Positions 5,496 to 56,917 of a stretch of DNA of 64,000 nt are shown here, piece after piece. The notes under the pieces are model-generated. The model saw only the letters and a program-made list of their open reading frames with translations, was not told the origin of the DNA and searched no databases. This DNA comes from Nitrospinota bacterium (lineage in GTDB: Bacteria > Nitrospinota_A > UBA7883 > JACRLM01). Position 1 is the stretch's first letter, and each line of letters begins with the position of its first letter. The position numbers and the translations under genes are program-made. Where the stretch lies: assembly GCA_016208975.1 (NCBI GenBank), contig JACQXA010000004.1, positions 681,015-745,014 of the forward strand, written 5' to 3'.

Positions 5496-5680
5496 AGTTT
5501 GGATTCTCGTGACGGTGTTAATCTCGGGCCCTCGCGGCTGGTTTTAGTTGTACAAAAGCGTGAATCCCCAATCGGCATTTAAAAAGGCATTAGCGCTCAC
5601 GCCGAAGTTTAAGGGGACGGCCGCGGTGATTCGGGCTGTTTTTCGCCGTGTTTGTCAATTCAAGAACAGGAGCATTTTCG

Positions 5681-6718: not shown

Positions 6719-6729
6719 AAACAGGGGGA

Positions 6730-7422: not shown

Positions 7423-7805
7423 CGCAGGGCAGAAAAGGGGTTTGGGGGATGTCCTGCGTAGCGGCTGTGTTCACCGCGGCCCTTGTGGCTCTGGCCTGGC
7501 CGGCTTCCGCGGCGACCAAGAGCGAAACGCTGTACAACGTCTATTGCGTCCAATGCCACGGGGTGACGCGCAACGGCAAAGGGATAAACAGCCCCGCCAT
7601 GGCTATCCAGCCGAGGGATCACACCGACGCCAAGGGAATGAGCGATATCCCTGACAGTCAACTGTTCAAGGCTATCAAGGAAGGAGGGATGGCGGTGAAT
7701 AAATCGTCACTCATGCCCGCATGGGGAGACGTGATGACAGACGAGGAAGTGAATGGGCTTGTCGCGTATCTGCGGCAGGTATGCAAATGTGGACCAACTA
7801 AATAA
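7419..7805 (+). CDS. ncgC: Monoheme c-type cytochrome (NcgC-like)
   Basis: One CxxCH (CVQCH), signal peptide; ATG overlaps upstream stop (ATGA at 7419-7422). Confidence 0.75.
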   Translation: MTQGRKGVWGMSCVAAVFTAALVALAWPASAATKSETLYNVYCVQCHGVTRNGKGINSPAMAIQPRDHTDAKGMSDIPDSQLFKAIKEGGMAVNKSSLMPAWGDVMTDEEVNGLVAYLRQVCKCGPTK

Positions 7806-7818
7806 GGGGAGTATTTTA

Positions 7819-10306: not shown

Positions 10307-10366
10307 AGTATGCGGAAAAAGCGTCCTGTAGTTTTCCGCCGTTTTAACCTCCACCGGTAAAATACG

Positions 10367-13300: not shown

Positions 13301-13453
13301 CTTCCCGTAATGTTCTCGAGCGGGGCAGGGTCCGACGTGATGAAGCGGGTGGCGGCTCCGCTGGTGGGGGGCATGCTCACCGCGCCGCTACTGTCGTTGT
13401 TCGTCATTCCTGCGCTCTACGCCATATTCATCCGGGGAAAGGGCGATAAGTAG
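10367..13453 (+). CDS. cusA: CusA/CzcA-family heavy-metal efflux RND transporter
   Basis: 1028 aa, 12-TM RND topology, N-terminus MIEKVIAWSLRNRPLVLL... typical of the HME-RND family. Confidence 0.9.
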   Translation: MIEKVIAWSLRNRPLVLLGSLLLAAWGWHSSRHMALDAIPDLSDTQVIVKTSFPGQAPQIVEDQVTYPLATALLSAPRSVAVRGFSMFGESNIYIIFEDGVDPYWARARVSEYLGQLAGRLPAGVTPSLGPDASGVGWILEYAIVDRNGSHNPDELRAIQDFYLKFELQSLPGVAEVATVGGMARQFQVEMDPDRMTAAGVTLESVEMAIRNANVSGGGSVTEMSGAEYMIRSHGHLKTLDDFGLISLGISDSGSPILLKDIANIQTGPETRRGVADLDGEGEATGGIVIMRPGQNALDIISRVKARLEELKSGLPPGVEIVITYDRSGLINRAIDNLTGKLLEESLAVAAVCLLFLFHLRSSLVAVVTLPLGILAAIGVMRQQGAPADIMSLGGIAIAIGAMVDAAVVMIENMHKSMEKAAPGEDRWEIVYRSSVEVGPALFFSLLVITVSFLPVFTLTGQEGKLFTPLAFTKTYAMAASAALAITLTPVLMGYFVRGRIAPESANPLNRFFQALYRPALLTSLRHKGRTMALAMALTISALWPAARLGSEFMPSLYEGDLLYMPTTLPGVSVDEAARITQITDRIIKTMPEVERVFGKAGRAETATDPAPLSMLETTILLKPQSQWPAGESIDDLVRKLDAAVSLPGLINSWGYPIRTRIDMLSTGIKTPLGVKITGPDSQGVADLASEIEMVIKNVRGTRNVFADRAASGRYIDVVMDRAESARYGVSAADIKRLMENAIGGETIGYVIDGRQRFSIAMRVPRSFRESPEAIGATRISTPMGAQIPLSHVARVEISNGPSEIKSENGRLAGYVYIDMAGRDLGGYAGEARLAVTSKIKLKPGYAITWSGQYESMERARERLYLAVPLTLALVFILLYMYFRSAGKVALVLLSLPFALSGGLWLVYLLGYNLSVAVAVGFIALAGVAAEFGVVMILYIDNAFREGSGGDVTSAVIQGALARIRPKMMTVTVIVAGLLPVMFSSGAGSDVMKRVAAPLVGGMLTAPLLSLFVIPALYAIFIRGKGDK

Positions 13454-18900: not shown

Positions 18901-19119
18901 CTTCAGCTCTTTTTCGATTTTCCGGGTCACCAGCGATTCCATGTCCGCCGGGGAAACGCCCGGATACACCGTGGTGACGATAACGAAGGGTATGGTGATG
19001 TCCGGCGAAGATTCCCTGGGCAGGGTGAAAAACGAATTTGTTCCAATGACGGCGATAATAAGAACCATGGCGTAAACCGCCATGTAGTTCTTGATGGAAA
19101 ACTCTGTGATTCTGGTCAC
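15967..19119 (-). CDS. RND multidrug efflux transporter (AcrB/HAE1-like)
   Basis: 1050 aa 12-TM RND permease. Confidence 0.9.
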   Translation of the reverse strand: MTRITEFSIKNYMAVYAMVLIIAVIGTNSFFTLPRESSPDITIPFVIVTTVYPGVSPADMESLVTRKIEKELKSIENIKEMRSSSKESISAITVEFEPSVDIDTALQKVRDKTSSARSEIPSEAEEPVVTEISFSNIPILYVNMSGGYGLPRLKKVADDLKDKIEQIPGVLEARVAGGLEREVQVNVDPARLRYYGLAMQDVEDAIARENVTIPGGSITLGDYKYLVRLPGEFEDFRIIRDIVIRSVDNKPVYVRDLAEVKFGFKETSTMARLNGQECISISVVKRSGENIIEVADAVKALVAQEERSFPRSTKVVYTADQSQDTKTFLSDLGNHVVTGVTLVVITLFFSLGLRAAVFVSLAIPFSLLIMFGVLSAAGITLNMVVLFSIILALGRLVDDAIVVVENIFRHAEEGADAKTAALEGTREVIVPVITSTMTTICGFLPIIFWPGIMGEFMVYIPYTVIIALLASLFVALVINPTMCATMLSVKSRSKSYAQRSEEEMGPLMRQYRRALIWALNHRGKTLAASFGALVMIIAVYSVAGHGVEFFPSADPRKTFVELEAPTGFTVDATDALTRKIEAIVKKYKETQTYVANVGVSAGVFDFSGMGESGPGNKARVIVDFIPREEREHSTKLIQDEIRAAATGEIVGARVRVSAEQMGPPVGAPINIEVFGDDYTVLADVSHTLEDVISKVPGVVDAENNYSAGMPELRIEIDREKAASYGLNTTDVAGGVRAAIYGSKASIYREGKDEYDIRVRYTEDRRDGFEKLKSYFIRHEGKEIPLSAVTKIDTSSGYSDIMHLDQKRVISVGAQVAAGYNSAATLETVKKTVAEKVKLPEGVQISYTGEEKEQKEAETFLTNAFFTAVFLIALVLILEFNSIVTPSIILTSVVLSIIGVLIGLLVTMSPFGIIMTGIGIVSLAGVVVCNAIVLLDYTIKLRERGMPKFDAIVTAGLTRLRPVLLTAITTILGVVPMSLGISFDFNKMKFAMGSDSTEFWGPMADAIVFGMGFATILTLVVVPALYSLLDSWMSRFYGVSLTHDGKDHAQG

Positions 19120-19122
19120 GGT

Positions 19123-20175
19123 TTATTTCCCGGAAATCTCCACGCGGTCGCCGTCCACCAAACTCCGCTGGCCAGATATAACCAGCTCATCCCCGGCCGC
19201 AAGACCGGAGCGCACCAGCGCCAACTCGCCGGAGACATCCTCAATCACAACCCGCCTCTGCCGGGCCGTAACCCCCTTCTCCACCACATACACCGCATGG
19301 CCGTCGGCCAGTTCCACCACGGCGTTCTGCGGGATGATTATGGAATCCGGCCCCAGGCTACGCCCGAAAGTTACCTTGGCGCTCATGTCCGGCAATATCT
19401 TCATATCACCGTTATCCACGGTGACCTCGCAATCGAACACCCGCGTAACAGGGTTCACCGCCGGGGCGATGAAACTTATTTTCCCTTCAAACTCCTTGTC
19501 CGGGAAAGCGTCGAAAGTGACCTTCGCCTTTTTCCCTTCGGAAAAATCCACCATGGATTTTTCCGGCAACCCTACGGAGATTTTTATCGGGTTCACCGCC
19601 ACAAGCCTGGCCAAGGGCTGGCCCGGGGCCACTATGGCGCCCACCTCCACCTCGCGGTTGACCATGGCCCCGGACAGGGGAGCCTTGATGACATGTTTGG
19701 CGAGGTACGCGCTGGCCCCGGCAAGCCGGGCCTCCGCCGCGTCCTGGTTCAGCCTGGCCTGCTCCATCTGAAACTCGGAGACGCCCGCTTTGCGCTCTTC
19801 GAGCGCCTTAAGCTTCCTGTGCTCCAGCGCCGCAAGGTCCCTCGCCGCCTGGGCGGCGGCCACGTCCGCGGCGGCGGTGGAACCGTCCAGCCATAAAAGC
19901 GGCTGGCCCGCTTTCACTCTGGCGCCTTTCTCAAAACCCAGGCGCGCCACCCTTCCCCCGGCCTCGAACGCCAACACCACTTCTTTCCACGCCTTGGCCA
20001 CCCCATTGAGGGTGAGGTCCTGCCTGAACTCGCCCGGCTCGATCTTCGACACTTTGACTTTCACCGTTTTCTTCTCGGCGGCGTTCTGCTGTGGCGGCGC
20101 GGCGGAGCCGGAGCAGGAAACGGCCATGGCCGCCACAGTGAACAGGACAAGGCTAGTTTTGTTTTTTCGCATCAA
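19123..20175 (-). CDS. RND efflux membrane fusion protein (HlyD family), lipoprotein
   Basis: Lipobox AVSC, coiled-coil and beta-barrel adaptor segments; 3 nt before the RND gene. Confidence 0.85.
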   Translation of the reverse strand: MMRKNKTSLVLFTVAAMAVSCSGSAAPPQQNAAEKKTVKVKVSKIEPGEFRQDLTLNGVAKAWKEVVLAFEAGGRVARLGFEKGARVKAGQPLLWLDGSTAAADVAAAQAARDLAALEHRKLKALEERKAGVSEFQMEQARLNQDAAEARLAGASAYLAKHVIKAPLSGAMVNREVEVGAIVAPGQPLARLVAVNPIKISVGLPEKSMVDFSEGKKAKVTFDAFPDKEFEGKISFIAPAVNPVTRVFDCEVTVDNGDMKILPDMSAKVTFGRSLGPDSIIIPQNAVVELADGHAVYVVEKGVTARQRRVVIEDVSGELALVRSGLAAGDELVISGQRSLVDGDRVEISGK

Positions 20176-21496
20176 TCTTCTCCCCGGCGGCGGAAAGGCC
20201 CATGGCGCGGATCAGCCGCGCCCTGGCCACGGCGTGTCCATATAACGTCCGGCCATGGCTTACCTGCGCCATTGTCAAAGCCCCGTGCGCGTCCAACAGC
20301 TCCAGATGCGTCGCCATGCCCACGCGGCGCCTCTCGCTGACTATCCTGTAAGTCTCCCGGGCGTGCTCCACGTTTAGCGACTGGCTCTCCACAAGCTCTT
20401 TGGCCCGCGTAAATTCGTCGAAGGCGGATTTGGCTTCCATAACCGTAAGCCGCTCCGCCCGTTCCATCTCAAGCCTGGCTATCTCCCGCTCGGACAGCCT
20501 CTGGTTCACCCGCGAGGCGCGCTCGGCCCCGTCGAACAGGTTGAGTTCCACTTTCGCGCCCACGTTCCATTCGTTTCGCCAGCCGAAACTGCCGTCGCCA
20601 CGGAAATCGCTATTGGAGCTACGATAGGCCCCGAAAAGCTTGGCGGTGGGATATAGCTCGCTTTTGGCGGCCCGCGCTATATTCTCGGCGGCTTCGTGGC
20701 CGGCACGGGCCGCAAGCAACTCCGGGCGGAAGGCTCGGGCGCTTTCCAGAGCCTCTTCAAGGCTAGTCTCCAGCGGTTCGTAAACCAACTCTCCGTCAAC
20801 TTCCACCGGCTCCAGCGGATCCATGGACACGCTCTCCAAAAGGGCCGACAATGCCCTTGAATAATCGTTCTTCGCGCCTATCAGCGCCGCCCGCGCTTCC
20901 GCCAGGCTTGTGGCGAACCGCATGACATCGTAGCTTGTGGCCAGCCCAAGCGCCTCCCTGTCCCTTGCGTCGGCGTGATGCGCCCCGGCCCGCTCCACCG
21001 TATCCTCATAGGCGCTTATAACCTGTCTGGCCAGAAGAACGGCGAACGCTTTGCTTTTCACGTCCGCCACGGCGTTGTTGAGCGCGGCTGTAACGCCGTT
21101 CTCCGCCATAGCCTCCAGCCGCTTGGCCGCGTCATACCCGGCGCCCACGGCCCCGGAGTAAATCCACTGGTTCAGCGACGCGTCCAGCGAATAGTTTTCG
21201 TCCGGCTGGAAACTCAGGCTCTGGCCCGGCGATATCTCATACTTGGGCACATTCCCCTCATGGCGATAGGTGGCCGAAAAATCGACATCCGGCAGTACCA
21301 GCCCGAAAGCCTCGCTCCGGCGGCTTGTGGCGTGGGCCAGCCGCGCTTTTGCTATTTGCGTGTCCACGCTCCGCTCCCCGGCCATGGACACAAAATCGTC
21401 CACCGTAAGTTTTTTAACGGCCGTCTCCCCGGCGGTGGCCATGGGCGCGCCCGCCATAAAAAATATTGCCGTTACTAAAAAGGTTGCTCTGGTCAC
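20153..21496 (-). CDS. TolC-family outer membrane efflux protein
   Basis: 447 aa, signal peptide, TolC-like repeated coiled-coil layout; overlaps adaptor start. Confidence 0.8.
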   Translation of the reverse strand: MTRATFLVTAIFFMAGAPMATAGETAVKKLTVDDFVSMAGERSVDTQIAKARLAHATSRRSEAFGLVLPDVDFSATYRHEGNVPKYEISPGQSLSFQPDENYSLDASLNQWIYSGAVGAGYDAAKRLEAMAENGVTAALNNAVADVKSKAFAVLLARQVISAYEDTVERAGAHHADARDREALGLATSYDVMRFATSLAEARAALIGAKNDYSRALSALLESVSMDPLEPVEVDGELVYEPLETSLEEALESARAFRPELLAARAGHEAAENIARAAKSELYPTAKLFGAYRSSNSDFRGDGSFGWRNEWNVGAKVELNLFDGAERASRVNQRLSEREIARLEMERAERLTVMEAKSAFDEFTRAKELVESQSLNVEHARETYRIVSERRRVGMATHLELLDAHGALTMAQVSHGRTLYGHAVARARLIRAMGLSAAGEKIDAKKQN

Positions 21497-22125
21497 CTCG
21501 CCTCCGCCTGATTGAAAAACGACCCCACCATGGCCTTTATCTGTTTGAGGTATTCTTTCATGTCCACCCTGGCGCCCATGCTCATAAGCTGGAGAAGCCC
21601 TACATATAAATTGATCAGCGCAATAGACAAAGTCTTCGCGTCCACCCCGGGCGAAAGTTCGCCGCTATTCTGCGCCTGCCGGATAATCTTTGCGAAGGCG
21701 TTTATATGGCTGTCGGTGTTCGACTTGCACGCCTTGAGGATGGCCGGGTTCCGCAACGCCTCGGCCCAAAGCTCCACCTCCAGCCGCACGTCCTGTTTCG
21801 GCATGGAACTAAGCTTTTCAAAAAATATGTCGGCAAGATTGGTAAGCGCCCCGTATGCGCCGCCATCGGAGTTTTCCGACACGTTTTTTATGATGGCGAG
21901 GTTTTCGACCCTTTCCCGTTCCGGCATTGCGGCGATTATCGCCTGTTTGCCGGGGAAATAACGGTACACCGCGCCGGGGCTCATGCCAGCCCGGGCGCAG
22001 ATGTCCTGCATGGTGGTTTTGTGGAATCCGTTACGGGAGAAGCAGGTGCAGGCGGCGTCCACAATCTGCCGTTTTCTGGCTTCCATGTGTTCCACATTCA
22101 TCCTGGGGGCCATTGGATTCTCCAA
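21493..22125 (-). CDS. TetR-family transcriptional regulator
   Basis: N-terminal HTH (KTTMQDICARAGMSPGAVYRYFPGKQAI); 4-nt overlap with tolC-like gene. Confidence 0.8.
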   Translation of the reverse strand: MENPMAPRMNVEHMEARKRQIVDAACTCFSRNGFHKTTMQDICARAGMSPGAVYRYFPGKQAIIAAMPERERVENLAIIKNVSENSDGGAYGALTNLADIFFEKLSSMPKQDVRLEVELWAEALRNPAILKACKSNTDSHINAFAKIIRQAQNSGELSPGVDAKTLSIALINLYVGLLQLMSMGARVDMKEYLKQIKAMVGSFFNQAEAR

Positions 22126-34626: not shown

Positions 34627-34703
<77 letters not shown>

Positions 34704-34847
34704 GTTCATCCTGGCCGAGCGCAGAAAACCTGTTCATCCCCTCTCAACCAGCCTCTCGCACGGGCCAGCGTGAACAATCTACGCCGGTGGCCGGATCAAA
34801 CATATATAATCCATTTCATCTTCCATTTTTCCCGATGGGGGTATGTT

Positions 34848-35825
34848 GTGCGAAGGATACTGGCTCTGGCGGCGCTAACGGTTTTTTCCATAATCGCCAT
34901 CACGTGCGGTGGCGGCTCATCAACAAGCGGCTCATCCGCGGGAAACGAATTGGCTGAAAGCTGTTCGTCAACCGCAACCTCCCGCGCATATCTCATGGCG
35001 TTCCATGTTTGCGACACTTCAACAGCCGTCTGTTCAAACCCGGCAAACCATTCAATAAGGCTAGCCGGTTCCGATGACGGATTGAACTGGACGTTGCTAC
35101 AGGATTTCGCCCCCCTCGCCGGTTCCGTGCCGGACATTGTTGAATATGACGGGGCCCTTTACATCTACCACACCGGCTTGGAGCATTACGCCAGCGTGAA
35201 CGCCTGCTTGCAGGTGACTGAAAGCGGCTCGGTGGCCATAAGCGGGGAAAGCGGCGGATTTGTGGATACTTCACTGATTTTGGTGGACGGCGCGTTGACC
35301 ATGTTCTATCTGCCAGGAATTATCGGGATGGATCCAGCCGGTTGCCAGGACTATCCATGCGTGAAAGAGATACATTCAGCCCGCAGTGTGAACGGTTCGG
35401 CATCTTCTTTCGCCCAGATCCCCGGGTCCAGGGCTTCTGCCAATCTGACGGGCGGGGTTTTTTCCGACCCTGATATTGTCAGTAGATCCAATGGCAGTTA
35501 CCTGCTTTATGTCTCCAGCGGCCAGAGCGTTCTGGGCTATTCATCCACCGATATTGACGGATCGTTCACCGGAGGCGTGACCATCAGCAACGGCGCGGGA
35601 GGCGTTCCCTCTGCCATCGAAGCGCCGGACGGCGCAATCTGGCTGTATGTCACCACAACGGTTGGCGGAGTGGAGGTTATCCGGCGCGCTTTACTGGCGG
35701 ACGACCTTACTCCCGCTTCATGGGTGGATTTTGTAACTGTAATGAATGGCTCCGCCCTTGGCCTCGGCGCCAGCGTGAGCGTGTCCAGCCCTTCAATCAT
35801 TCCCTGGCCATCAAGCTGGAAATAA
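34848..35825 (+). CDS. Hypothetical lipoprotein
   Basis: In-frame GTG start giving signal peptide (V)RRILALAALTVFSIIAITCGG with lipobox; the longer ORF from 34659 would overlap the tRNA. Confidence 0.55.
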   Translation: MRRILALAALTVFSIIAITCGGGSSTSGSSAGNELAESCSSTATSRAYLMAFHVCDTSTAVCSNPANHSIRLAGSDDGLNWTLLQDFAPLAGSVPDIVEYDGALYIYHTGLEHYASVNACLQVTESGSVAISGESGGFVDTSLILVDGALTMFYLPGIIGMDPAGCQDYPCVKEIHSARSVNGSASSFAQIPGSRASANLTGGVFSDPDIVSRSNGSYLLYVSSGQSVLGYSSTDIDGSFTGGVTISNGAGGVPSAIEAPDGAIWLYVTTTVGGVEVIRRALLADDLTPASWVDFVTVMNGSALGLGASVSVSSPSIIPWPSSWK

Positions 35826-41752: not shown

Positions 41753-42362
41753 TTTTTTAATCTCCCGTTTGAATGAACACCCCTGGATTTATCCATCATC
41801 ATTGCGCCGGGCGCAAAAACTCTCAAGGGTTTTTTGAGCCACGCCGATAAACAACGTAATAGGGCCGGAAATCCCCCGCGAAGGAATGTGGGGCGGCAAG
41901 ATTACCAAGGAGGGTAACATCATGGATACTGTGAATATTTTTGGGAGCGACCACAAGGGGGCCATCTTAAGGGCCTATCCGATGAAGAAACGATTGCCAC
42001 AGCTGGGCGCGGGAATGAATCTTTTTGATAAACCAGCGACAGCCGCCGGAAATTCCCGCCTCCGGGTACAGCCGGGTGGAGGTTTTGTGGCTTTAACAGC
42101 CTGATTTAACGTCGCATATCGTTCTTCAGGCCCGCCAGTTCCATTGGGGCGGGCCTGTATTCTTATTTAACGGGGGAACAACTCGCCACTAAATGTATAA
42201 ATCATGTTATTACAATATGTTATCACCTATTTAGGCTGTCCGCTTATTTTTGGAAGGCAGTTTTAACTTGTTCCAAATGTCTCGTTTCACGCATATCTGG
42301 CATTTGACTGGCGCTTGTTTATTAGTTTAAAATATGCATTTTTAAATAGTGGAGGTACGGCG

Positions 42363-42551
42363 ATGAAGAAGAAAATCGGTAAGGCGCCAACCTGTAAACA
42401 TTGCGGTGGGGCCATGATAGACAGGTTCGATGAGCTAACCTGCGTCATGTGCGGCAGGATTTCTAGCCACTCGTGTGAAAACTGTTTGAAATTAGAGGAG
42501 GAAAGGCCGGCATCCGCAAAGCGGGGCGGTAAGAGGGCCAGCGCGGCCTAA
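42363..42551 (+). CDS. Small zinc-ribbon protein
   Basis: CKHCGG ... CVMCG pairs; SD ggagg before ATG. Confidence 0.4.
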   Translation: MKKKIGKAPTCKHCGGAMIDRFDELTCVMCGRISSHSCENCLKLEEERPASAKRGGKRASAA

Positions 42552-42642
42552 TTTGTATCTCATTGAATTTTATACGGCGGGGGGTTACACAAAACCTTCC
42601 GCCGTATTTTTTTAGCCGCGATAATTCCCCCTTCACATTACA

Positions 42643-43950
42643 ATGAAAAACAAAGTGTTCATGGTTTCCCTGGGTTGCCCGAAAAACCAGGTGGATTCGG
42701 AGAAAACCCTTTACGCCCTCCAGCAAGCCGGAATGGAGATAGTGGCGGACGAAACCCAGGCGGACATCATAATCACCAACACCTGCGGTTTTGTGAACGA
42801 CGCCAAGCAGGAGTCCATAGACACCATTCTGGAGCTTTCCCGGCTGAAAAAAACAAATCCCGATGTGAAACTCGCTGTAATGGGTTGTCTTTCTGAGCGG
42901 TACAGGGATGACCTCAAGAAAAGCATCCCGGAGATTGACCATATCTTCGGAACCGCGGAACTTTCGCATATCGTTAGCGATCTGGCGCCAAAGAAAATCG
43001 AGGCTCCCCATGACCCGGACGATTCGGCGCGCATCCTTACCACCGCCCCTCACTGGGCTTATCTTAAAATAGCCGAAGGGTGTTCCAACAAATGCGCGTT
43101 CTGCATAATCCCGGCAATCCGGGGGCCATATAAAAGCGTTCCCGCAGATATGGCGCTAAAGGAGGCCAAAGCGCTGGCGGCCCGGGGAGTCAAAGAGCTT
43201 ATCCTGGTGGCGCAGGACACCACGTTGTACGGCGCCGACATCCATATGAAAAACGGTCTGGCGGAGCTTTTGAGGGGGTTGGTTAAAATACCGGGGCTTG
43301 AATGGATACGGGTGATGTACATGTACCCTACACTGGTGAATGACGAGCTGTTGTCGGTTATGGCCGGGGAAGAAAAAGTGGCGCCTTATTTCGACATGCC
43401 CCTGCAACACGCCGCCGACAGCGTGTTGAAAAACATGTTGCGGCCGGAGACCAACGGCTCCATCCGCGCCCTGCTGGAAAAAATAAAAAGACGGCTTCCC
43501 CATGCCGCGCTCCGCACCGCTTTTATCACCGGTTTTCCGGGTGAGACGGAAGCGGATTTCAAGGTTCTCCTAAACCTTGTGAAAGACGAAGAGTTCGACC
43601 ACATGGGGGCTTTCGTATATTCCCCGGAAGAGGGGACCTCGGCGTATGGAATGCCAGGCTCCGTGCCCCGGAAAAAAGCCGAGGAACGGTACGCGCGGCT
43701 GATGGAGACCCAAAAAAGCATTTCCTCAAGAAAACTGGAACGCAAAGTGGGCATGACCGGCAGGGTATTGGTGGACGGAATGGCGGGGGAAGAGATGTTA
43801 AATACCGGCAGGCTCATCACCCAGTCCCCGGGAATAGACGGATGCGTTATATTGGATGGGGTGGAGGCGGAGCCCGGCGATTTTATCCAGGTGGCTATAA
43901 CCGGCCACACCGAATACGACCTGATAGGGTCAGGCGCGGAAAATGTTTAA
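42643..43950 (+). CDS. rimO: Ribosomal protein S12 methylthiotransferase RimO
   Basis: N-terminal MVSLGCPKNQVDSE, radical-SAM CxxxCxxC (CSNKCAFC), C-terminal TRAM. Confidence 0.85.
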   Translation: MKNKVFMVSLGCPKNQVDSEKTLYALQQAGMEIVADETQADIIITNTCGFVNDAKQESIDTILELSRLKKTNPDVKLAVMGCLSERYRDDLKKSIPEIDHIFGTAELSHIVSDLAPKKIEAPHDPDDSARILTTAPHWAYLKIAEGCSNKCAFCIIPAIRGPYKSVPADMALKEAKALAARGVKELILVAQDTTLYGADIHMKNGLAELLRGLVKIPGLEWIRVMYMYPTLVNDELLSVMAGEEKVAPYFDMPLQHAADSVLKNMLRPETNGSIRALLEKIKRRLPHAALRTAFITGFPGETEADFKVLLNLVKDEEFDHMGAFVYSPEEGTSAYGMPGSVPRKKAEERYARLMETQKSISSRKLERKVGMTGRVLVDGMAGEEMLNTGRLITQSPGIDGCVILDGVEAEPGDFIQVAITGHTEYDLIGSGAENV

Positions 43951-44134
43951 TGTTTTCTTCTTCTACATCGGCCGGGCCTTGCAAATATTAGGAATGATCA
44001 CGGCGGCCATGGCCCTGCTCACCTATTTCAACCAGCAGGAAAACATGGGCACGATGATGAAAATAGCCGGGGCGGGCCTGGTGGAATTTTATGTGGGTTA
44101 CGGCATCACAATGCTCACCGGGAGAAAAGGATGA
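43943..44134 (+). CDS. Small hydrophobic protein
   Basis: 63 aa, two predicted helices, start overlaps rimO stop and stop overlaps cutA start. Confidence 0.35.
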   Translation: MFNVFFFYIGRALQILGMITAAMALLTYFNQQENMGTMMKIAGAGLVEFYVGYGITMLTGRKG

Positions 44135-44457
44135 AAGCCGGGGACAATATCGTTGTCCTGATTACAGCCGGGGGTGAGGACGAGGCGGAGCGGATAGCCA
44201 AAACCCTGGTGGAGGAGAATCTGGCCGCCTGCGTGAACATAATAAGTGGCCTCCGCTCCATATACCGGTGGGAAGGCAAGACCTGTGACGAGGGGGAGGT
44301 TCTGCTGGTGGTAAAATCCAGCGGGGCGCTGTTTGACGCGCTGGAAGAGCGGGCGCGGGCCCTGCATTCATACTCCACGCCGGAGATAGTAGCTTTACCC
44401 ATCACCCATGGGTCAGCAAAATACATGGACTGGCTGAACGGAAGCCTGAGGAAATGA
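44131..44457 (+). CDS. cutA: Divalent-cation tolerance protein CutA
   Basis: ~108 aa CutA1 fold signature. Confidence 0.8.
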   Translation: MKAGDNIVVLITAGGEDEAERIAKTLVEENLAACVNIISGLRSIYRWEGKTCDEGEVLLVVKSSGALFDALEERARALHSYSTPEIVALPITHGSAKYMDWLNGSLRK

Positions 44458-44939
44458 AACACAGCACTCGAATAAAGATATTCCGGGACGAGCATCATTT
44501 CGCCGCCGCTCATTTCCTGGTGGAAATGGGCAAGTGCGAGAGGCTCCACGGCCACAACTACGGCGTTACAGTGGAGATCTGCGCCGACCCGGCCATGAAC
44601 CACACCGTAACCGATTTCAACCGGATCAATCCATTGATCAAACGGGTTTGCGACACGCTGGACCACAAGATACTCATAGCCGGGGAAGACCCGCGACAGA
44701 CGCTCACCATCACCGGCGAGGAATTGGAGGCCCGGTTCGGCCCCAAACGGTTCGTGTTCCCCAAGTCCGACTGCGAGGTGTTGCCCGTCAAGGCCACCAC
44801 GGTGGAGCTTCTTTCGGCCTATCTAAGTGAAAAGTTGTTGGAGGCGCTAAGGCCGCTAGGGCTGGAAGGGCTTCAGTGGCTGGAGGTGGGCGTGAAAGAA
44901 GGCGGTTCCCAGATGGCGATACACAGGATGGAGTTTTAA
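44454..44939 (+). CDS. queD: 6-pyruvoyl-tetrahydropterin synthase / QueD-family protein
   Basis: HHFAAAH and CERLHGHNY zinc-binding motifs. Confidence 0.75.
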   Translation: MKHSTRIKIFRDEHHFAAAHFLVEMGKCERLHGHNYGVTVEICADPAMNHTVTDFNRINPLIKRVCDTLDHKILIAGEDPRQTLTITGEELEARFGPKRFVFPKSDCEVLPVKATTVELLSAYLSEKLLEALRPLGLEGLQWLEVGVKEGGSQMAIHRMEF

Positions 44940-44974
44940 AGCGCCTTATATACTGTTGCCAGATAGTTTTCACA

Positions 44975-46084
44975 TCACCAGCGCAAACTACCGCAAGGAG
45001 TTCTCTTGAACAAGGAACGCCAGAGATGGTCTTTTTCTGGTGGGGCGCCAATCTTGACGATCTCGATAAATCCCTTTGCCTGACCTTTTTTTGCGTTTTC
45101 AGTTATAGGCCCTGCATAGAAAGTTGAATCCTCAAGCTTGGTTATTGGTTCGGCCTTCCGGCCATCAATATCCCCGTATCCAAATGCAAGAATATTTACT
45201 TCATTCGGGCGTTTTGCGATGTAGCGAGACAGTTCAAGGGCTGTGGTGCTCGATATATAATTGGCGAGAACATCTTGGAGCAACCAGAATGTTTTACCGT
45301 TCCATGCAATGCCCACCTGAGATTTTACGATAAGTTGGCTTACCATCCGCGCCCATACCTGACGGTAGTTGATGCCTGGTCCATTATGGCTTGAAGGATC
45401 AATTATTGCGTCCTCGCAAGCCATCGGGATTTGGGTCCTTTTCTTCTTGTCGCCACCAGAGGTGCTTGAGGTCATAATCTCGACAATGGTTATTGGATCC
45501 GTGGGGAAATCTTCAATCCAATGCTCGCCATTTCGAATGGCTATCGTATAACCGTTTGCCTCTGCAAGTGGCAGTGTAGCTCGTTCTCCTTTCCCAATCA
45601 GTCCTGCTACCTCGGAAAGCCTCTTCCGGCCTGACCCCGCAATAATATAGTCAAACGAATAATCAAATGACTTTGCTTCATCATCGTCATTTCTCGTCTC
45701 AATCTTCATCTTCACTTCTGACCATGCGCGATATGTTCTGCCTGAGTCAAGTTGAGCATACTTTGCGAGTTGTGTCCGCACATGCGTTTGGTAGTCGGTC
45801 TGTGTTTGCGCGCGAAGTGATAAAAGCCGACGCGGGCAAACTATCCAAGGCTGTTCTCCATCACGAAGTCTAAGTGAACAAACACCGGATTGCACAATAA
45901 CCTTACCGGGGAAAAATTTCCGCAAATTACGGCTTTTGCGCAAATCTAATGCTGAAAGGTAACGGTTTCCACCACCATCACACTCAGCATCCATAAAAGG
46001 ACACCATGCTTTCGCTCGGTTTTCTGCGGCTTCCTCGTTCCAGCAATCAAGCCGGTATCCGTACAATTCAAATATCTTGCTCAT
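44975..46084 (-). CDS. Type II restriction endonuclease, putatively NotI-like
   Basis: Overlaps and follows the C5 methyltransferase gene; N-terminal four-Cys pattern WCPF...C...GVCSL...WIVCPRRL recalled as resembling the NotI metal-binding module; lower GC than surroundings. Confidence 0.6.
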   Translation of the reverse strand: MSKIFELYGYRLDCWNEEAAENRAKAWCPFMDAECDGGGNRYLSALDLRKSRNLRKFFPGKVIVQSGVCSLRLRDGEQPWIVCPRRLLSLRAQTQTDYQTHVRTQLAKYAQLDSGRTYRAWSEVKMKIETRNDDDEAKSFDYSFDYIIAGSGRKRLSEVAGLIGKGERATLPLAEANGYTIAIRNGEHWIEDFPTDPITIVEIMTSSTSGGDKKKRTQIPMACEDAIIDPSSHNGPGINYRQVWARMVSQLIVKSQVGIAWNGKTFWLLQDVLANYISSTTALELSRYIAKRPNEVNILAFGYGDIDGRKAEPITKLEDSTFYAGPITENAKKGQAKGFIEIVKIGAPPEKDHLWRSLFKRTPCGSLRW

Positions 46085-47189
46085 CCAAGAACCTCATTAT
46101 CTGTTGCCCAAGAATGCGAGCCAATGGAGGGGGAACGGAATTTGCCACCTGTCTATGTTGATCGAGATTTCGCACAGAACCCGTTCTGGATCTTATAGGA
46201 CCTTTAAGAATATAGTCGTCAGGATAACCATGTATCCTCATGTATTCGCGTGGAGTTAGATATCGGTTTTCAGTAGGATGATAGAATATCTCTCCGCATC
46301 GAAGAGTGTTTGCGGGTCGCTTGCGATGGAGGCGAAGATATTTCGTTGTGTCCTTAGGGGACAAACCGCACCGAAGTTCTTCACCTAGATGTGTTTGTGC
46401 GGAAAGATAAGATCCTTCTGGAACTTGAGCGATTCGTTCTCGATCTCTTGGTGGAGTCACATCAACATGACTATCAAGCCTTTCATAAACAGTTTTCCCC
46501 TGTATTTTGGAATCTGGTTTCCCAAGACCTTTGATTGCTTTTCCAGTTCCAACGTACGGTTGATAATGAAAAAGTCCATTGCATTCTTCCGCTGGAGCAT
46601 GGGTTCTCTCGGGAAAAACAAAACCATTACGTCCCCGCGTTGCAATGACAAAGAGCCGCTCTCGCAGTTGCGGAACCCCGAAATCAGACGCAAGAATGGC
46701 ACGCCATTTTGGAGTATAATTAATTTTCTCCAGTTCACTTAGAAAATTTTCAAAGACCTCACCTCGGCGATTCGTGTGACCTTTGGATGACAATAGCCCC
46801 TTGACTTGCTCAAGTAAAATCACTTTGGGTTGAATGGACTTTGCAAAGCGAATGATCTCAAAAAGTAGAGGACCCCGCTCGTCACTTAAACCAAGTTGCT
46901 TCCCAGCCAATGAAAACGACTGACATGGTGGACCACCGAATAGAATATCCAATTCACCTTTCTTAATGTTAAGTTCTTTCAGTAGTGATTGGGGATCGAC
47001 GTTGCGGATATCCTTTTGAATTATTCGTGAATTGTAATTGTTATTTTCCGCATTGGCCCGCAATGTAGCGCAACAATGTTCATCAATTTCCAGTTCAGCC
47101 AATACTTCAAAACCTGCATCTCTGATGCCAATATCCATACCGCCAGCCCCAGAAAAGAGACTTATTGATTTCCTGATGCTAGAATTCAT
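46068..47189 (-). CDS. DNA (cytosine-5)-methyltransferase
   Basis: Motif I FSGAGG, motif IV GGPPCQ, LLEQV (ENV-like); start at MNSSIRK. Confidence 0.85.
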   Translation of the reverse strand: MNSSIRKSISLFSGAGGMDIGIRDAGFEVLAELEIDEHCCATLRANAENNNYNSRIIQKDIRNVDPQSLLKELNIKKGELDILFGGPPCQSFSLAGKQLGLSDERGPLLFEIIRFAKSIQPKVILLEQVKGLLSSKGHTNRRGEVFENFLSELEKINYTPKWRAILASDFGVPQLRERLFVIATRGRNGFVFPERTHAPAEECNGLFHYQPYVGTGKAIKGLGKPDSKIQGKTVYERLDSHVDVTPPRDRERIAQVPEGSYLSAQTHLGEELRCGLSPKDTTKYLRLHRKRPANTLRCGEIFYHPTENRYLTPREYMRIHGYPDDYILKGPIRSRTGSVRNLDQHRQVANSVPPPLARILGQQIMRFLDEQDI

Positions 47190-47392
47190 CGTGATAGGTG
47201 ATAACGGTAGTAGTATTAGGGCGCGTTTTTTAAGCATTTTACACAAGAATTGTTATTATACCACCATCCAATTCAGACAATACGCGATAATTACCGACAC
47301 GTAATCGGAATCGTTTCATCAGCAACCTTTCGCGCCAAGGTGATTAAACCAAGTTTTTTACTTTGCCGAGTTTACGCCACCTTGCTAATCCA

Positions 47393-48559
47393 TCACTCCC
47401 CGTACACCACCATATCGTTGCGGTGGGCCACTTCGTCGTAAGTCTTGTACCCCAATATCGTTTCTATCAGGCTGGAGTGGCGCCCCATGATTTTCTCCAC
47501 CTCGTGGACAGGGTAGTTTATCAACCCTTTGGCGAACACCTTCCCGTCCGGCCCGGCGATGGATACGGCGTCGCCATCCTCGAACTCCCCTTCCACCGCC
47601 GTAATTCCAGACGCCAGAAGACTGCGCCCTTTATTAACGATAGCGTCGCGCGCGCCATCGTCCACCTGTATCTTGCCTGCGGGAACCAGGGTGTATTCTA
47701 TCCAGTGCCGTTTGCTGTCCAGCCGGTCTTCGTGGGGAAAAAAGAATGTGCCCGCCGTGGAAGGGCCTTCCATCGCGTCAAGCAAAACCCCCTGTTTCAT
47801 GCCCGGCAGGATTATGGTTGGGGCGCCGAACCTGGCGGCCTCGCCAGCCGCCCGCGCCTTGGAGGCCATGCCGCCAAGGCCGGTGGTGGATGAGGAATCA
47901 CCGGCCATGGATAGAATGTTTTCGTCCACTTCCTCCACATAATCCAGTTTCCGCGCGGAAGGGTCCAGCCTGGGGTCGGCCGTGTAAAGCCCTTCGACGT
48001 CGGAGAGGATAACCAGCAGGTCCGCCTCGATAAGGTTTGTGACCCGGGCGGACAAAGTGTCGTTGTCGCCGAACTTTATCTCGTCCACCGAAACCGTGTC
48101 GTTCTCGTTTATGACCGGGATCACGCCAAAATCCAACAGACTGTTGAGCGTGTTGCGGGCGTTCAAAAACCGGCGCCGGTCCCGCAGGTCGTCATGGGTA
48201 AGCAGGACCTGCCCCACTTTGTGCTCGTGTTTTAAAAAACTTTGCGCCCAGAGAGAAATCAGGCTTCCCTGCCCCAGCGCCGCCGCCGCCTGTTTTACGG
48301 GGATGGACAACCCGTGGCGGGGAATGCCCAGAATCCGCGTTCCCAGCGCTACCGAGCCGGAGCTTACCAGCGCCACATGGCGCCCGCCGGAGGCTATGGC
48401 GGAAACCTGCCGGGCTATTTCCGCCATGATCTGCGCGTTCACCTCGGCATGACCGCCGCCGGAAAGCACGCCGCTACCTACTTTGACTACAATGCGCCTG
48501 GCCGCGCCGACAAGTTTTTCGCGGCGGGCGGCAAGGGCGCTGGCTGAATCCGCTGTCAT
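47393..48559 (-). CDS. proB: Glutamate 5-kinase
   Basis: Amino-acid kinase fold (IVVKVGSGVL) with C-terminal PUA domain. Confidence 0.9.
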   Translation of the reverse strand: MTADSASALAARREKLVGAARRIVVKVGSGVLSGGGHAEVNAQIMAEIARQVSAIASGGRHVALVSSGSVALGTRILGIPRHGLSIPVKQAAAALGQGSLISLWAQSFLKHEHKVGQVLLTHDDLRDRRRFLNARNTLNSLLDFGVIPVINENDTVSVDEIKFGDNDTLSARVTNLIEADLLVILSDVEGLYTADPRLDPSARKLDYVEEVDENILSMAGDSSSTTGLGGMASKARAAGEAARFGAPTIILPGMKQGVLLDAMEGPSTAGTFFFPHEDRLDSKRHWIEYTLVPAGKIQVDDGARDAIVNKGRSLLASGITAVEGEFEDGDAVSIAGPDGKVFAKGLINYPVHEVEKIMGRHSSLIETILGYKTYDEVAHRNDMVVYGE

Positions 48560-53162: not shown

Positions 53163-53960
53163 ATGTCCGGCACGCTAACGGTAATTATCGTCCTAGCCAT
53201 TATCACGGCCTCTTCCATCCGCATTTTGAACGAATATGAACGGGGCGTCATATTCCGCCTGGGCCGTTATTACAAGGTAAAGGGGCCAGGCATGATAATA
53301 GTCTGGCCAGTGATAGATAAGATGGTGCGCATTTCCCTTCGCCTTGTGGCGCTCGATGTGCCCCCGCAAGACATCATAACGCGGGACAACGTGTCCATGA
53401 AGGTCAATGCGGTGGTCTATTTTAAAGTGGTGGAGCCGGAGAAGGCCGTCATCCAGGTTCAGGATTATTTTTACGCCACGGGCCAGCTTTCGCAAACCTC
53501 ACTACGGTCCGTGCTGGGGCAGGTGGATCTGGACTCCATCCTGGCCGAGCGGGACAAGATAAACCACGAACTGCAAGCCATTCTGGACAAGCGGACAGAC
53601 CCGTGGGGCATAAAGGTGAGCAACGTTGAGATAAAACATGTGGACCTGCCCGCCGAGATGCAACGGGCCATGGCCAAACAGGCCGAGGCCGAACGGGAAC
53701 GGCGCGCCAAGGTGATCAACTCCCTCGGCGAATTTGAGGCGGCCGCAAAGCTGGCCGAAGCGGCGGAGATCATTTCCGGCCGCCCTGCCGCGCTCACATT
53801 GCGTTATCTGCAAACATTACGCGAGATGTCCTCGGAACACACCACGAACACCATCATTCCGCTTCCCATCGAGATCGTGGAGCCGTTCCTGCACTCCATG
53901 CGGCAGGCCGCTAATAAAGCTGGCGGCACAAGGGCCGGTCAGCAATCCTCGGAAGCGTAA
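53163..53960 (+). CDS. SPFH/band-7 (stomatin-like) protein
   Basis: N-terminal TM helix then SPFH body, coiled-coil C-terminus; SD ggaggg. Confidence 0.8.
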
Positions 53961-54496
53961 AAGCTCACAAGGGTATCGCCGTATTTGCGGGATCGGGTAA
54001 GGCGAAGAGGCAAACCCCCTTCCGTTCCCGGCGGCGCGTGCCTTGCGCTGGATTCCATGACCAACGCGCCCCCTTTCGAAAGGACGGGGGCGGCTTCTTC
54101 CACGATCCGGGTTTCGTATCCCGCGTCCCACGGGGGATCGGCGTAGATTATGTCGAAATTGTAACCGCCTCTGGCCAAGCCGGCCAGCGCCTGAAAAACG
54201 TCGGCTTTCATAAGGGTGATGGCCGGTGAGCCTTCAAGCCTCAGCTTTTTGAGGTTCCGCTCCACCAGGTCCATCCGCCGGTTTTCCACCAGCGTCACCC
54301 GGGCCGCCCCTCTGGACATGGCCTCCAGCCCCATGGCGCCGGATCCGGCGAAGAGGTCCAGAAACGATGCGCCCGCCACTTTTTCGCCAAGAATGTTGAA
54401 GATGGCCTGTTTGACCTTGTCGGGAGTGGGGCGCACGTCCAGCCCTTTGGATGTGAACAACGTGGCGCCGCGATAAGCGCCTCCGGTGACTCGCAT
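53939..54496 (-). CDS. rsmD: 16S rRNA (guanine966-N2)-methyltransferase RsmD
   Basis: [14 protein letters not shown] and DPPW motifs. Confidence 0.85.
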
Positions 54497-54508
54497 GGCG
54501 GGCCTTTT

Positions 54509-54874
54509 TTAGCCCCTCCTTTTGGCCGTAGCGTTTTTCCGGCCCACCAGCACCGCGTCAACCATGGCCACAAGCCACACCGCCAGCGCGCCGGAAAGTA
54601 TCCACAAAAGCTTTTTTAGCCCGTCTATGAACTGGTCGTCCACGGTGGGGGCCCTGCCGCTCATTATGGCCTGATGCACAGGCGACGCGATGACAGCCAG
54701 CTGGAAGAAAAAGGCTATGGCGATGAGGACAGACACCCCCACGATTATCCAGCCTTTCACCTTCTGGTTGTTAGCCAGCTGGCCCGCGCCGGGAAACACG
54801 ATTGACAGGATAATCAACACCCCTATGGGCGGCAGATCCGTTTTTCCGGCAGGACCGGGCTGTTTCATCGCCAC
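54509..54874 (-). CDS. Hypothetical membrane protein
   Basis: 121 aa, three hydrophobic helices, operonic spacing. Confidence 0.5.
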   Translation of the reverse strand: MAMKQPGPAGKTDLPPIGVLIILSIVFPGAGQLANNQKVKGWIIVGVSVLIAIAFFFQLAVIASPVHQAIMSGRAPTVDDQFIDGLKKLLWILSGALAVWLVAMVDAVLVGRKNATAKRRG

Positions 54875-54875
54875 G

Positions 54876-55805
54876 TTACGCTATCTCGCCGCTGACGTCT
54901 TCGAAATGGGTGAGCCGCCGGAACCGCTGGAACCGCTGGGCTATCTCCTTGCGCTCCAGCTCCTTCAGCCTGTCCACCGAGAATTTCTCGACGGTGAACG
55001 ACGCCATGACCGAGCCCATGATGATGGCCTGCCTCAAACGGGTCTCGTTAAACTGCCCGTCACCCATGCGGGCCACATGCCCCATGAATCCGCCCGCGAA
55101 GGTGTCCCCGGCGCCGGTGGGGTCGAACACCTCCTCCAGCGGATAAGCGGGGGCGGCGAAAATCTCCCCATCGTGAAACAGCAGGGCGCCATATTCGCCC
55201 CGTTTTACGATAAGGGTTTTCGGGCCCATACCCATGATCCCCCGGGCGGCTTTCACCAGGTTGGCCTCACCGGCCAGCTGGCGCGCCTCGCCCTCGTTTA
55301 TCACCAATATGTGGACCCGTTTAAGGGTTTTCAACAGTTCATCGCGGGCTCCCTGTATCCAGAAATTCATGGTGTCGCAGGCGATGAGCCTGGGATTTTT
55401 CACCTGGTCCAGAACTTTTTGCTGGAGCTTGGGGTCTATATTGGCCAGGAACACATACTCAGAATTTTTATAGTCCTCGGGTAAAGTGGGGTCGAAATCC
55501 AGGAGGACGTTAAGATGTGTCTCCAGGGTCTTGGCCTCGTTGAGGTCGAACCCGTACTCCCCCTTCCAGTGGAAAGACTTCCCGCTGGAGCGTTGCACCC
55601 CTTTCAAGTCGATGCCGTTTTTTTCCAGCATGCCGATGTCACCATCGCCAAAATCGCTCCCGATCACCGCCACCAGGTTCACCTTTGTAAAATAACTTGC
55701 GGACAGCGAAAAATAAGTGGCGGACCCGCCCAGCGCCCAGTCCCGCTGGCCGAAGGGGGTTTTCACCGAATCGTAGGCCATGGTGCCGACGACGAGAAGG
55801 CTCAT
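54876..55805 (-). CDS. PfkB-family carbohydrate/nucleoside kinase
   Basis: Ribokinase-like GG dipeptide and DPTGAGDTFAGG motif. Confidence 0.8.
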   Translation of the reverse strand: MSLLVVGTMAYDSVKTPFGQRDWALGGSATYFSLSASYFTKVNLVAVIGSDFGDGDIGMLEKNGIDLKGVQRSSGKSFHWKGEYGFDLNEAKTLETHLNVLLDFDPTLPEDYKNSEYVFLANIDPKLQQKVLDQVKNPRLIACDTMNFWIQGARDELLKTLKRVHILVINEGEARQLAGEANLVKAARGIMGMGPKTLIVKRGEYGALLFHDGEIFAAPAYPLEEVFDPTGAGDTFAGGFMGHVARMGDGQFNETRLRQAIIMGSVMASFTVEKFSVDRLKELERKEIAQRFQRFRRLTHFEDVSGEIA

Positions 55806-55835
55806 TACGATAGTCTCCTGAAATAGTGTTAGCGG

Positions 55836-56345
55836 TTAGTTCTTGCCTTCTTCGGGCAATGGCCAATGGTCAAAATACATCATGGATGTTTTTTTGAACT
55901 CCCTGGTGGAGAAGAGGACGTCGTAGTCTTTTATCCCCGTCTCTTCGGCCATGCGTTTGGCTATCTGTTTCACCTCGTCTTCCGACTCCCCGTGGATCAT
56001 GGTGAACAGGTGGAACGGCCAGTCCTCAAACGACGGGCGCTCGTAGGCGTGGCTCACCTCGGGCCGGTTGGAAAGAAGCTCCCCAAGCCGCTGGCGGTCC
56101 GCCGCGTCGGGAACGCTCCACACCCCCATGCCATTGGCGGTGAAACCGGCTTTCTGGTGACGGAGGGTTGCGCCAAACCTTCTATAATATTTCTTCCCGG
56201 CGTACTCCCTGGTCTTGGCGATAACATCTTCTTCGGCGATTCCCAGTTTATCGGCGATGGACTTGAAGGGGTTCTTCGTCATGGGCAGGCTCCGCTGAAG
56301 CTCGGCCATTATCCTCACGTCGTAAGCGGTGATCTCTTTTTTCAT
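55836..56345 (-). CDS. Siroheme decarboxylase subunit, AhbB/NirH-like (Lrp/AsnC fold)
   Basis: HAYERP...WPFHLFTMIHG block typical of the NirDLGH/AhbAB family. Confidence 0.7.
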   Translation of the reverse strand: MKKEITAYDVRIMAELQRSLPMTKNPFKSIADKLGIAEEDVIAKTREYAGKKYYRRFGATLRHQKAGFTANGMGVWSVPDAADRQRLGELLSNRPEVSHAYERPSFEDWPFHLFTMIHGESEDEVKQIAKRMAEETGIKDYDVLFSTREFKKTSMMYFDHWPLPEEGKN

Positions 56346-56346
56346 C

Positions 56347-56844
56347 TTACGCCACCTCCTCCAACTCTCCGGCCTTCTCCTTGAACTTGAAGTCCACCTT
56401 TATCTTGAACTTCTTTATCATGGGCATGTTCCTCACGGGCCCATAGCCGGAGTCCCGCTCTATCTCGCTCAGTGTCTTGTCCACCGTCCCGGTGTCCGGC
56501 GCGATAAGGGTGAACCACAAGTTGTATTCGTGGTTGCGCTGATAGTTGTGGGTGACGCCCGGATAACGGCTCACAACCTTGGCCACGTCGCCAATTTTAT
56601 CCTGCGGCACACGCATGGCGCACAGGGTGGAGGTCCAGCCCAGCCCGCGGCTGTCGAAGCTGGCGCCTATACGGCGAATGATGCCGGTGTCGTAAAGTTT
56701 CTTGACCCTCCCAAACGCCTCGTCCTCGCTTACGCCGATCTCCGCGCCTATGATGGCGTAGGGGGCGTGATCCACGGGGAACCGGGTTTGGATAATGTTC
56801 AGGATTTTCCTGTCTATCTCGTCCATCGGTAAAATACTCCGCAA
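56347..56844 (-). CDS. Siroheme decarboxylase subunit, AhbA/NirD-like (Lrp/AsnC fold)
   Basis: N-terminal HTH (LDRKILNIIQ), NYQRNHEYNLWFTLIA block; 1 nt from partner gene. Confidence 0.7.
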   Translation of the reverse strand: MRSILPMDEIDRKILNIIQTRFPVDHAPYAIIGAEIGVSEDEAFGRVKKLYDTGIIRRIGASFDSRGLGWTSTLCAMRVPQDKIGDVAKVVSRYPGVTHNYQRNHEYNLWFTLIAPDTGTVDKTLSEIERDSGYGPVRNMPMIKKFKIKVDFKFKEKAGELEEVA

Positions 56845-56917
56845 ACAGCCGTTAATGTATCCGAAAGGATTTTATTTTAATACACTGGAGCCAAAAGGTA
56901 AAAGCAAGGAAGCTGGC

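Follow-up and report, generated by a model that had tools for sequence, protein, structure and literature searches.

A 64,000-nucleotide stretch of the genome of a Nitrospinota bacterium (assembly GCA_016208975.1, contig JACQXA010000004.1, positions 681,015 to 745,014 of the forward strand; the whole of it is called the window below) carries two adjacent genes, ahbA and ahbB, whose products were confirmed by sequence comparison as an AhbA/AhbB-type pair with predicted siroheme decarboxylase activity (EC 4.1.1.111). By analogy with characterized members of the family, the reaction catalysed by the Nitrospinota pair is most likely the conversion of siroheme to 12,18-didecarboxysiroheme. Judging from the gene context, the siroheme-dependent route to heme b is the most likely destination of this product, a reading to which a probability of about two in three is given. 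The pair points to siroheme-derived tetrapyrrole synthesis in the basal Nitrospinota.

Identification of the siroheme decarboxylase subunits

The first protein gave 169.7 bits with the NCBIfam model NF040708 (AhbA, cut-off 140) and 75.7 bits with NF040707 (AhbB), and the second gave 177.6 bits with NF040707 (cut-off 125) and 63.7 bits with NF040708. Since each scored higher on its own model than on that of the other subunit, the pair consists of one alpha-type and one beta-type subunit. The Pfam domains PF22451 (NirdL-like_HTH) and PF17805 (AsnC_trans_reg2), the latter an AsnC-like ligand-binding domain, were recognized in both proteins at E-values between 1e-11 and 1e-30, far beyond chance level.

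The closest solved relatives of both subunits are the siroheme decarboxylases 4CZD/4UN1 and 4CH7/4CZC. The alpha subunit matched AhbA of Desulfovibrio desulfuricans (Protein Data Bank (PDB) entry 4CZD_A; also 4UN1) with 146 bits and 48% identity, and the N-terminal half of NirDL from Hydrogenobacter thermophilus (4CH7/4CZC) with 98.8 bits. The beta subunit matched the C-terminal half of the same NirDL (4CH7) with 108 bits, its score with D. desulfuricans AhbB (4CZD_B) being slightly lower (99.8 bits). A preliminary description of this DNA had proposed that two adjacent open reading frames (ORFs) of the Lrp/AsnC fold encode an AhbA/AhbB-like siroheme decarboxylase pair; both frames were found, on the minus strand, and the proposal is supported by the NCBIfam cut-offs, the domain architecture and the HxYxR motifs described below.

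Active site and predicted reaction

Siroheme decarboxylases share an HxYxR motif, conserved in both subunits and directed towards the cavity between them, which defines the active site (Palmer et al. 2014, PMC4145669). In D. desulfuricans AhbA, His115 is the iron ligand and Arg119 binds a propionate, and in AhbB the residues His98, Tyr100 and Arg102 are catalytic, the R102A variant being inactive, with a contribution from Lys152 (PMC4145669). The alpha subunit of the window contains HNYQR and the beta subunit HAYER; both fit HxYxR and are aligned with the motifs of 4CZD, and the lysine of the KKTSM segment of the beta subunit aligns with Lys152B. In an alignment of the window pair with seven orthologue pairs from Nitrospinota, HxYxR was invariant in both subunits.

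On the model of the known enzyme, AhbA and AhbB would form a heterodimer of the Lrp/AsnC fold, with the active site located between the two C-terminal beta-sheet domains. The heterodimer would remove the carboxyl groups of the acetate side chains at C12 and C18 of siroheme, giving 12,18-didecarboxysiroheme. If the roles established for D. desulfuricans AhbA/AhbB can be carried over, the His and Arg of the alpha motif would bind the iron and a propionate; decarboxylation itself would be the task of the His, Tyr and Arg of the beta motif. The later steps from didecarboxysiroheme to heme b would fall to AhbC and AhbD, or to another coproheme decarboxylase, with genes at other places in the genome.

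Organism and conservation of the pair

The host, a Nitrospinota from groundwater, belongs to the basal class UBA7883. The nearest genome matches were metagenome-assembled genomes (MAGs) of Nitrospinota, with AhbB identities of 61-80%, and two of the nearest, HyVt-426 and nWMHbin6, are placed in class UBA7883 (Kop et al. 2024, supplement). The class has been described as basal, subsurface-associated and bearing rDSR (reverse dissimilatory sulfite reductase), a siroheme enzyme.

The window was compared with 11 related Nitrospinota loci (L002-L008 and L054-L057). The order ahbA-ahbB-pfkB-(membrane protein)-rsmD was repeated in six of them (L003, L004, L007, L008, L054 and L055), at AhbB identities down to 56%. 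The pair is conserved over the basal Nitrospinota and is set there in a housekeeping gene string.

Destination of didecarboxysiroheme

Didecarboxysiroheme is converted to heme b by AhbC and AhbD, or to heme d1 by NirJ, NirF and NirN. There is no evidence inside the 64-kb window that decides between the two. The Pfam annotation of 46 large ORFs there included an ammonium transporter, resistance-nodulation-division (RND) efflux systems, pilMNOPQ, trp and his genes and flagellin. The sole radical S-adenosylmethionine (SAM) protein among the annotated ORFs (42643-43950) is a methylthiotransferase of the MiaB/RimO type, and a screen for CxxxCxxC over the window and all loci compared gave no ahbC, ahbD or nirJ candidate in Nitrospinota. 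The late classical enzymes HemE, HemN/F, HemY/G and HemH were not encoded in the window either; as the genome measures at least 2.2 Mb and the window 64 kb, this says little.

Heme b is favoured by the surroundings of the pair and by its distribution. The window contains no heme d1 gene of the Cytochrom_D1 or NirJ type, and the 11 Nitrospinota loci have neither these nor any other nir gene within 10 kb. The pair is widespread in the lineage and lies in a housekeeping string, whereas NirS has been reported only from some members. Moreover, a supply of siroheme and a pathway of the anaerobic type would suit a basal, subsurface, rDSR-bearing class.

Several results weigh against the heme b assignment, and the first of these concern the genes that would complete the route. 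None of ahbC, ahbD, nirJ, nirF, nirS and the hem genes was present among the 46 large ORFs of the window as annotated with Pfam, the absence of ahbC and ahbD being the unfavourable part of this result for a window covering 64 kb of the genome; the 11 Nitrospinota loci likewise yielded none of these genes. With the verified AhbD of Methanimicrococcus (L039; 545 bits to the AhbD model) as the query, a tblastn search of the window and all Nitrospinota loci was negative. The best 120 matches of a search with an AhbD/NirJ2-like protein (L011, see below) were all of the 'Deltaproteobacteria' type, with no Nitrospinota, and none of the 15 clusters examined in a cluster-representative search carried a Nitrospinota name, the matches belonging to other lineages or to unnamed metagenome proteins.

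The family models themselves are also unfavourable. As a control, the NCBIfam models were applied to the heme d1 proteins of an Azoarcus nir cluster (L050, 2678-4760), whose genes follow a NirF-like Cytochrom_D1 gene and precede a NirJ-like one. The AhbA/AhbB cut-offs were exceeded by the NirDL fusion (242 and 156 bits) and by NirH (164 bits), and NirG, with 106 bits, was the only control protein that stayed below them. The NCBIfam names therefore tell the enzyme and not the pathway, and the use of 'Ahb' names as pathway evidence was rejected. In practice, automatic 'AhbA/AhbB' names do not tell heme b from heme d1 biosynthesis.

A phylogeny of the two subunits, which had been suggested as a check in the preliminary description, was calculated by neighbour joining (153 columns, 200 bootstraps). 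The alpha and beta families were split with 99% bootstrap, one window protein falling in each clade, and the window proteins grouped with those of other Nitrospinota. Neither subunit fell within the Azoarcus clades of NirD/G (90%) or NirL/H (77%). The alpha clade of Nitrospinota adjoined D. desulfuricans AhbA with only 28% support, and the alpha subunit was closest to Desulfovibrio AhbA (48-49% identity). The remaining features of the tree again speak against heme b: the sister of the Nitrospinota beta clade (57%) was formed by AhbB-like proteins of groundwater 'Deltaproteobacteria' (52-54% identity, the nearest relatives of the beta subunit beyond Nitrospinota), encoded beside NirF-like Cytochrom_D1 genes, and the deep nodes were poorly supported, with bootstraps of 28-57%. 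The phylogeny thus places the pair outside the Azoarcus Nir clades but, with deep nodes so poorly supported and a NirF-adjacent sister group, does not decide the pathway.

The loci of this sister group deserve a separate description. In three 'Deltaproteobacteria' MAGs (L009, 9995-12222; L010, 9995-13516; L011, 7672-10426) a lone AhbB-like gene occurs without AhbA, beside the gene of a 398-amino-acid NirF-like Cytochrom_D1 protein. L011 also encodes nearby a radical SAM protein of the AhbD/NirJ2-like kind, which carries PF08369 as an additional C-terminal domain and whose family comprises more than 100 clusters. Possibly the lone AhbB-like protein works as a homomeric decarboxylase within a d1-like system of unusual type.

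The type of nitrite reductase has also been used to choose between the pathways. An ORF at 7753-8760 on the plus strand, 47 kb from ahbAB, encodes NirK; it showed 73% identity over 285 amino acids to PDB 4KNS, a solved copper nitrite reductase, and gave 197.8 bits with TIGR02376, under the cut-off of 296.3. The copper type reported in the preliminary description is in agreement with this identity. Most Nitrospinota possess NirK, and some UBA7883 MAGs also possess NirS (Kop et al. 2024), a further point against the heme b assignment; for this reason NirK in the window cannot exclude a NirS elsewhere in the genome. The earlier argument that NirK makes the heme b route more likely is consequently retained only in its outcome, which the context favours, while the step from NirK is weak given that the models accept Nir proteins, that NirS occurs in some UBA7883 and that ahbC and ahbD were not seen.

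The neighbourhood of nirK was recorded as well. At 5648-8760 on the plus strand nirK comes last in a row of genes, after those of a two-domain multicopper oxidase (519 bits to PDB 3G5W) and of a cytochrome c (6715-7422). This is the order of the ncgA-ncgBC-nirK cluster of Nitrosomonas europaea, the organism whose NirK is 4KNS. The high identity to the protein of a betaproteobacterial ammonia oxidizer suggests horizontal transfer.

The results just described bear on a first alternative, namely that the pair acts as an equivalent of NirD/L/G/H in making heme d1 for a NirS encoded elsewhere in the genome, heme b being formed by the classical route. The pair shares its family and predicted reaction with those proteins, and the models that it passes also accept true NirDL and NirH; in Azoarcus, however, the corresponding genes lie inside the nir cluster, whereas neither the window nor any of the 11 Nitrospinota loci has nirS, nirF, nirJ, nirE or nirN within a distance of 10 kb. 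NirS is known from UBA7883 MAGs (Kop et al. 2024), but only from some of them, while the pair is conserved in its housekeeping string over many MAGs and the window carries NirK. Although the beta sister group is encoded next to NirF-like proteins and to a radical SAM protein of the AhbD/NirJ2-like kind, and the beta subunit scored slightly higher against H. thermophilus NirDL than against D. desulfuricans AhbB, the pair itself falls outside the Azoarcus Nir clades. On balance this alternative is regarded as rather unlikely.

Quite unlikely, too, is a hybrid route in which AhbAB and AhbC would lead to Fe-coproporphyrin III (coproheme) and an oxygen-tolerant decarboxylase of the ChdC/HemQ type, similar to chlorite dismutase (Cld), would replace AhbD in the formation of heme b. 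Fused AhbAB proteins occur in hem operons of Bacillota, which are normally ChdC users, so that the decarboxylase is found outside the classical Ahb organisms. A ChdC pathway beside the Ahb pathway has been discussed for Haloferax (PMC5746218), and a protein of the chlorite dismutase family appears in the metabolic figure of the Nitrospina gracilis genome paper. Neither a ChdC nor a Cld gene, on the other hand, is present in the window.

Organization of the locus

The features of the locus are collected in Table 1. The minus strand from 53939 to 56844 contains five closely packed ORFs, which correspond to GenBank entries MBI4666163 to MBI4666167. The ahbA ORF, taken mechanically, extends over 56347-56844 and opens at a TTG at 56844. 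The ATG at 56826 is more likely to be the start, because a GGAG lies 10 nucleotides upstream of it, the orthologues of AhbA open at the equivalent position with a shared MDExD N-terminus, and the GenBank protein MBI4666167.1 has the matching length of 159 amino acids.

Table 1. Positions, within the window, of the ahbAB gene string and the site upstream of it.
Feature	Position	Strand	Remarks
ahbA, siroheme decarboxylase alpha-type subunit	56347..56826	-	159 aa from ATG; NF040708, PF22451, PF17805
ahbB, siroheme decarboxylase beta-type subunit	55836..56345	-	169 aa; NF040707, PF22451, PF17805
PfkB-family kinase	54876..55805	-	309 aa; PF00294
small membrane protein	54509..54874	-	121 aa; weak DUF5683 match only, E = 0.004
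rsmD, 16S rRNA (guanine966-N2)-methyltransferase	53939..54496	-	185 aa; TIGR00095 129.9 bits (cut-off 117.5); PF03602 144 bits
promoter-like site TTTACC-17-TAAAAT	56874..56902	-	consensus scan, 9/12 matches; weak evidence

The ATG of ahbB follows 1 nucleotide past the TAA stop of ahbA and is preceded by GGAGGAGG, a strong Shine-Dalgarno sequence; the short gap together with this sequence suggests translational coupling of the two genes. The spacers down the string from ahbA to rsmD measure 1, 30, 1 and 12 nucleotides, and after the 30-nucleotide spacer that follows ahbB an AGGAG ribosome-binding site is located 9 nucleotides ahead of the ATG of pfkB. The promoter-like site lies about 50 nucleotides upstream of ahbA, inside the gap of about 250 nucleotides that separates it from a sulfatase gene. 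No terminator-like site was found between the five genes on the minus strand by a consensus scan, which is weak evidence. The gene spacing fits a single transcription unit.

Neighbouring genes and synteny

The three genes that the preliminary description had listed downstream of the pair and on the same strand, encoding a PfkB kinase, a small membrane protein and RsmD, were all present. They are probably co-transcribed neighbours without a role in tetrapyrrole metabolism. The kinase stayed under all NCBIfam equivalog cut-offs, its nearest structure being the structural-genomics entry PDB 3KD6, which was matched over the full length with 364.6 bits. It belongs to a highly conserved subfamily, with 65% identical orthologues in Nitrospirota and 'Deltaproteobacteria' (L058-L061) encoded directly after a PNP_UDP_1 nucleoside phosphorylase gene and with no ahbAB nearby. 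Its role is most likely in nucleoside or sugar salvage, to judge from these relatives, and the adjacency of pfkB and ahbAB most likely represents lineage-specific synteny. Copies of the membrane protein, 33-47% identical, were found at the same place in L003-L006.

A functional coupling of the kinase to the decarboxylase, for example through a tetrapyrrole-related or cofactor substrate, would explain the conserved ahbAB-pfkB arrangement and is very unlikely. The order ahbA-ahbB-pfkB is retained to 56% AhbB identity, and the genes are joined by the 30-nucleotide spacer with no terminator; in L005 and L006, however, unrelated genes, some of them on the opposite strand, are interposed between ahbB and pfkB, L057 has ahbAB without pfkB, and the 65% identical orthologues occur behind PNP_UDP_1 genes and away from ahbAB. 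On these three observations the functional link was rejected. The operon with PfkB that had been described earlier is accordingly real as a gene order, and probably has no functional meaning.

Annotation in public databases

In GenBank both subunits (MBI4666166.1 and MBI4666167.1) are labelled 'Lrp/AsnC family transcriptional regulator'; two annotation pipelines have given close homologues the names 'siroheme decarboxylase subunit beta' or 'Siroheme decarboxylase AhbB, alternate heme biosynthesis pathway'. That the proteins are non-enzymatic Lrp/AsnC transcription factors, as might be supposed from the GenBank labels, from a match of the alpha subunit to an HTH_AsnC-type domain (31 bits) and from a fold common to regulators, the binding of DNA by AhbA/B having been left possible (PMC4145669), is extremely improbable, as the alpha subunit gave only 42.6 bits with LysM (cut-off 180), 28.1 with LrpA (250) and 23.2 with AsnC (227), the beta subunit matched no regulator equivalog, the enzyme models reached 170-178 bits and the catalytic HxYxR is kept in both subunits. 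The public annotation of MBI4666166.1 and MBI4666167.1 is corrected here from Lrp/AsnC regulators to enzymes.

Other features of the window

The region 42000-48000 has a G+C content of 0.485-0.516, compared with about 0.57 elsewhere in the window. Within this patch the gene of a DNA cytosine methylase (46068-47246) overlaps a 369-amino-acid ORF without Pfam match (44975-46084), and the two probably form a restriction-modification pair. A further stretch of lower G+C includes, at 34627-35825 on the plus strand, a tRNA-Pro(GGG) gene (34627-34703) and a 388-amino-acid ORF without Pfam match that opens within it; possible explanations are a spurious ORF or an integration hotspot at this site.

Two RND efflux systems were identified. 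The first (9152-13453, plus strand) consists of a membrane-fusion protein with a heavy-metal-binding domain and an AcrB-type pump, and the second (15967-22125, minus strand) comprises an outer-membrane factor, a fusion protein, a pump and a TetR regulator.

Implications for heme synthesis in Nitrospinota

It is tempting to speculate that the basal subsurface Nitrospinota (UBA7883 and relatives) make all their heme by the siroheme-dependent, anaerobic-type radical SAM route, and that the later-branching, aerobic nitrite-oxidizing Nitrospinia have lost the pair. This proposal is tentative and has a less than even chance of being correct, the hints for a loss of the pair in Nitrospinia being negative search results only: cultured Nitrospina was represented neither among the 49 genome matches nor among the best 120 AhbB homologues (to 48% identity), and both searches favour close relatives. 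Neither the Nitrospina gracilis genome paper nor Kop et al. 2024 nor the 2023 Nitrospirota/Nitrospinota paper deals with heme biosynthesis. If the proposal were true, the heme pathway would be a marker of the anaerobic-to-aerobic transition inside Nitrospinota, and the Ahb route would extend past archaea and sulfate reducers. A confirmation of ahbC and ahbD would mean that the alternative heme route reaches a phylum better known for its aerobic nitrite oxidizers.

Comparison with known siroheme decarboxylases

The window pair resembles AhbA/AhbB of D. desulfuricans (4CZD, 4UN1; PMC4145669) in consisting of two separate paralogous subunits of about 160-170 amino acids, with HxYxR in both and the KKTSM lysine in the beta subunit. 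It differs in the beta subunit, which is only about 35% identical, and in its host, which is a Nitrospinota and not a sulfate reducer, ahbC and ahbD not being seen in the window. With NirDL of H. thermophilus and the proteobacterial NirD/L/G/H it shares the family and the motif, and the activity is predicted to match; those proteins are fused or occur as four paralogues, encoded in nir clusters beside NirF (Cytochrom_D1) and NirJ, whereas the window pair is unfused and has no nir neighbours.

A third type of arrangement is found in Bacillota. The AhbAB proteins of Tepidibacillus (L017) and Paenibacillus (L021) show 38-44% identity to the window proteins, and both halves of the Tepidibacillus fusion pass the NCBIfam AhbA and AhbB models. 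The fused ahbA-ahbB genes, coding for 358 and 385 amino acids, belong to hem gene strings (L017, 5182-11818; L021, 5220-10561) and lie between hemB-like and hemL-like genes, these neighbours having been identified from N-terminal sequence only. In these Bacillota AhbAB is one fused polypeptide encoded among hem genes, whereas in the window the two subunits are separate and stand apart from hem genes. The Nitrospinota pair is an ordinary addition to a known enzyme family.

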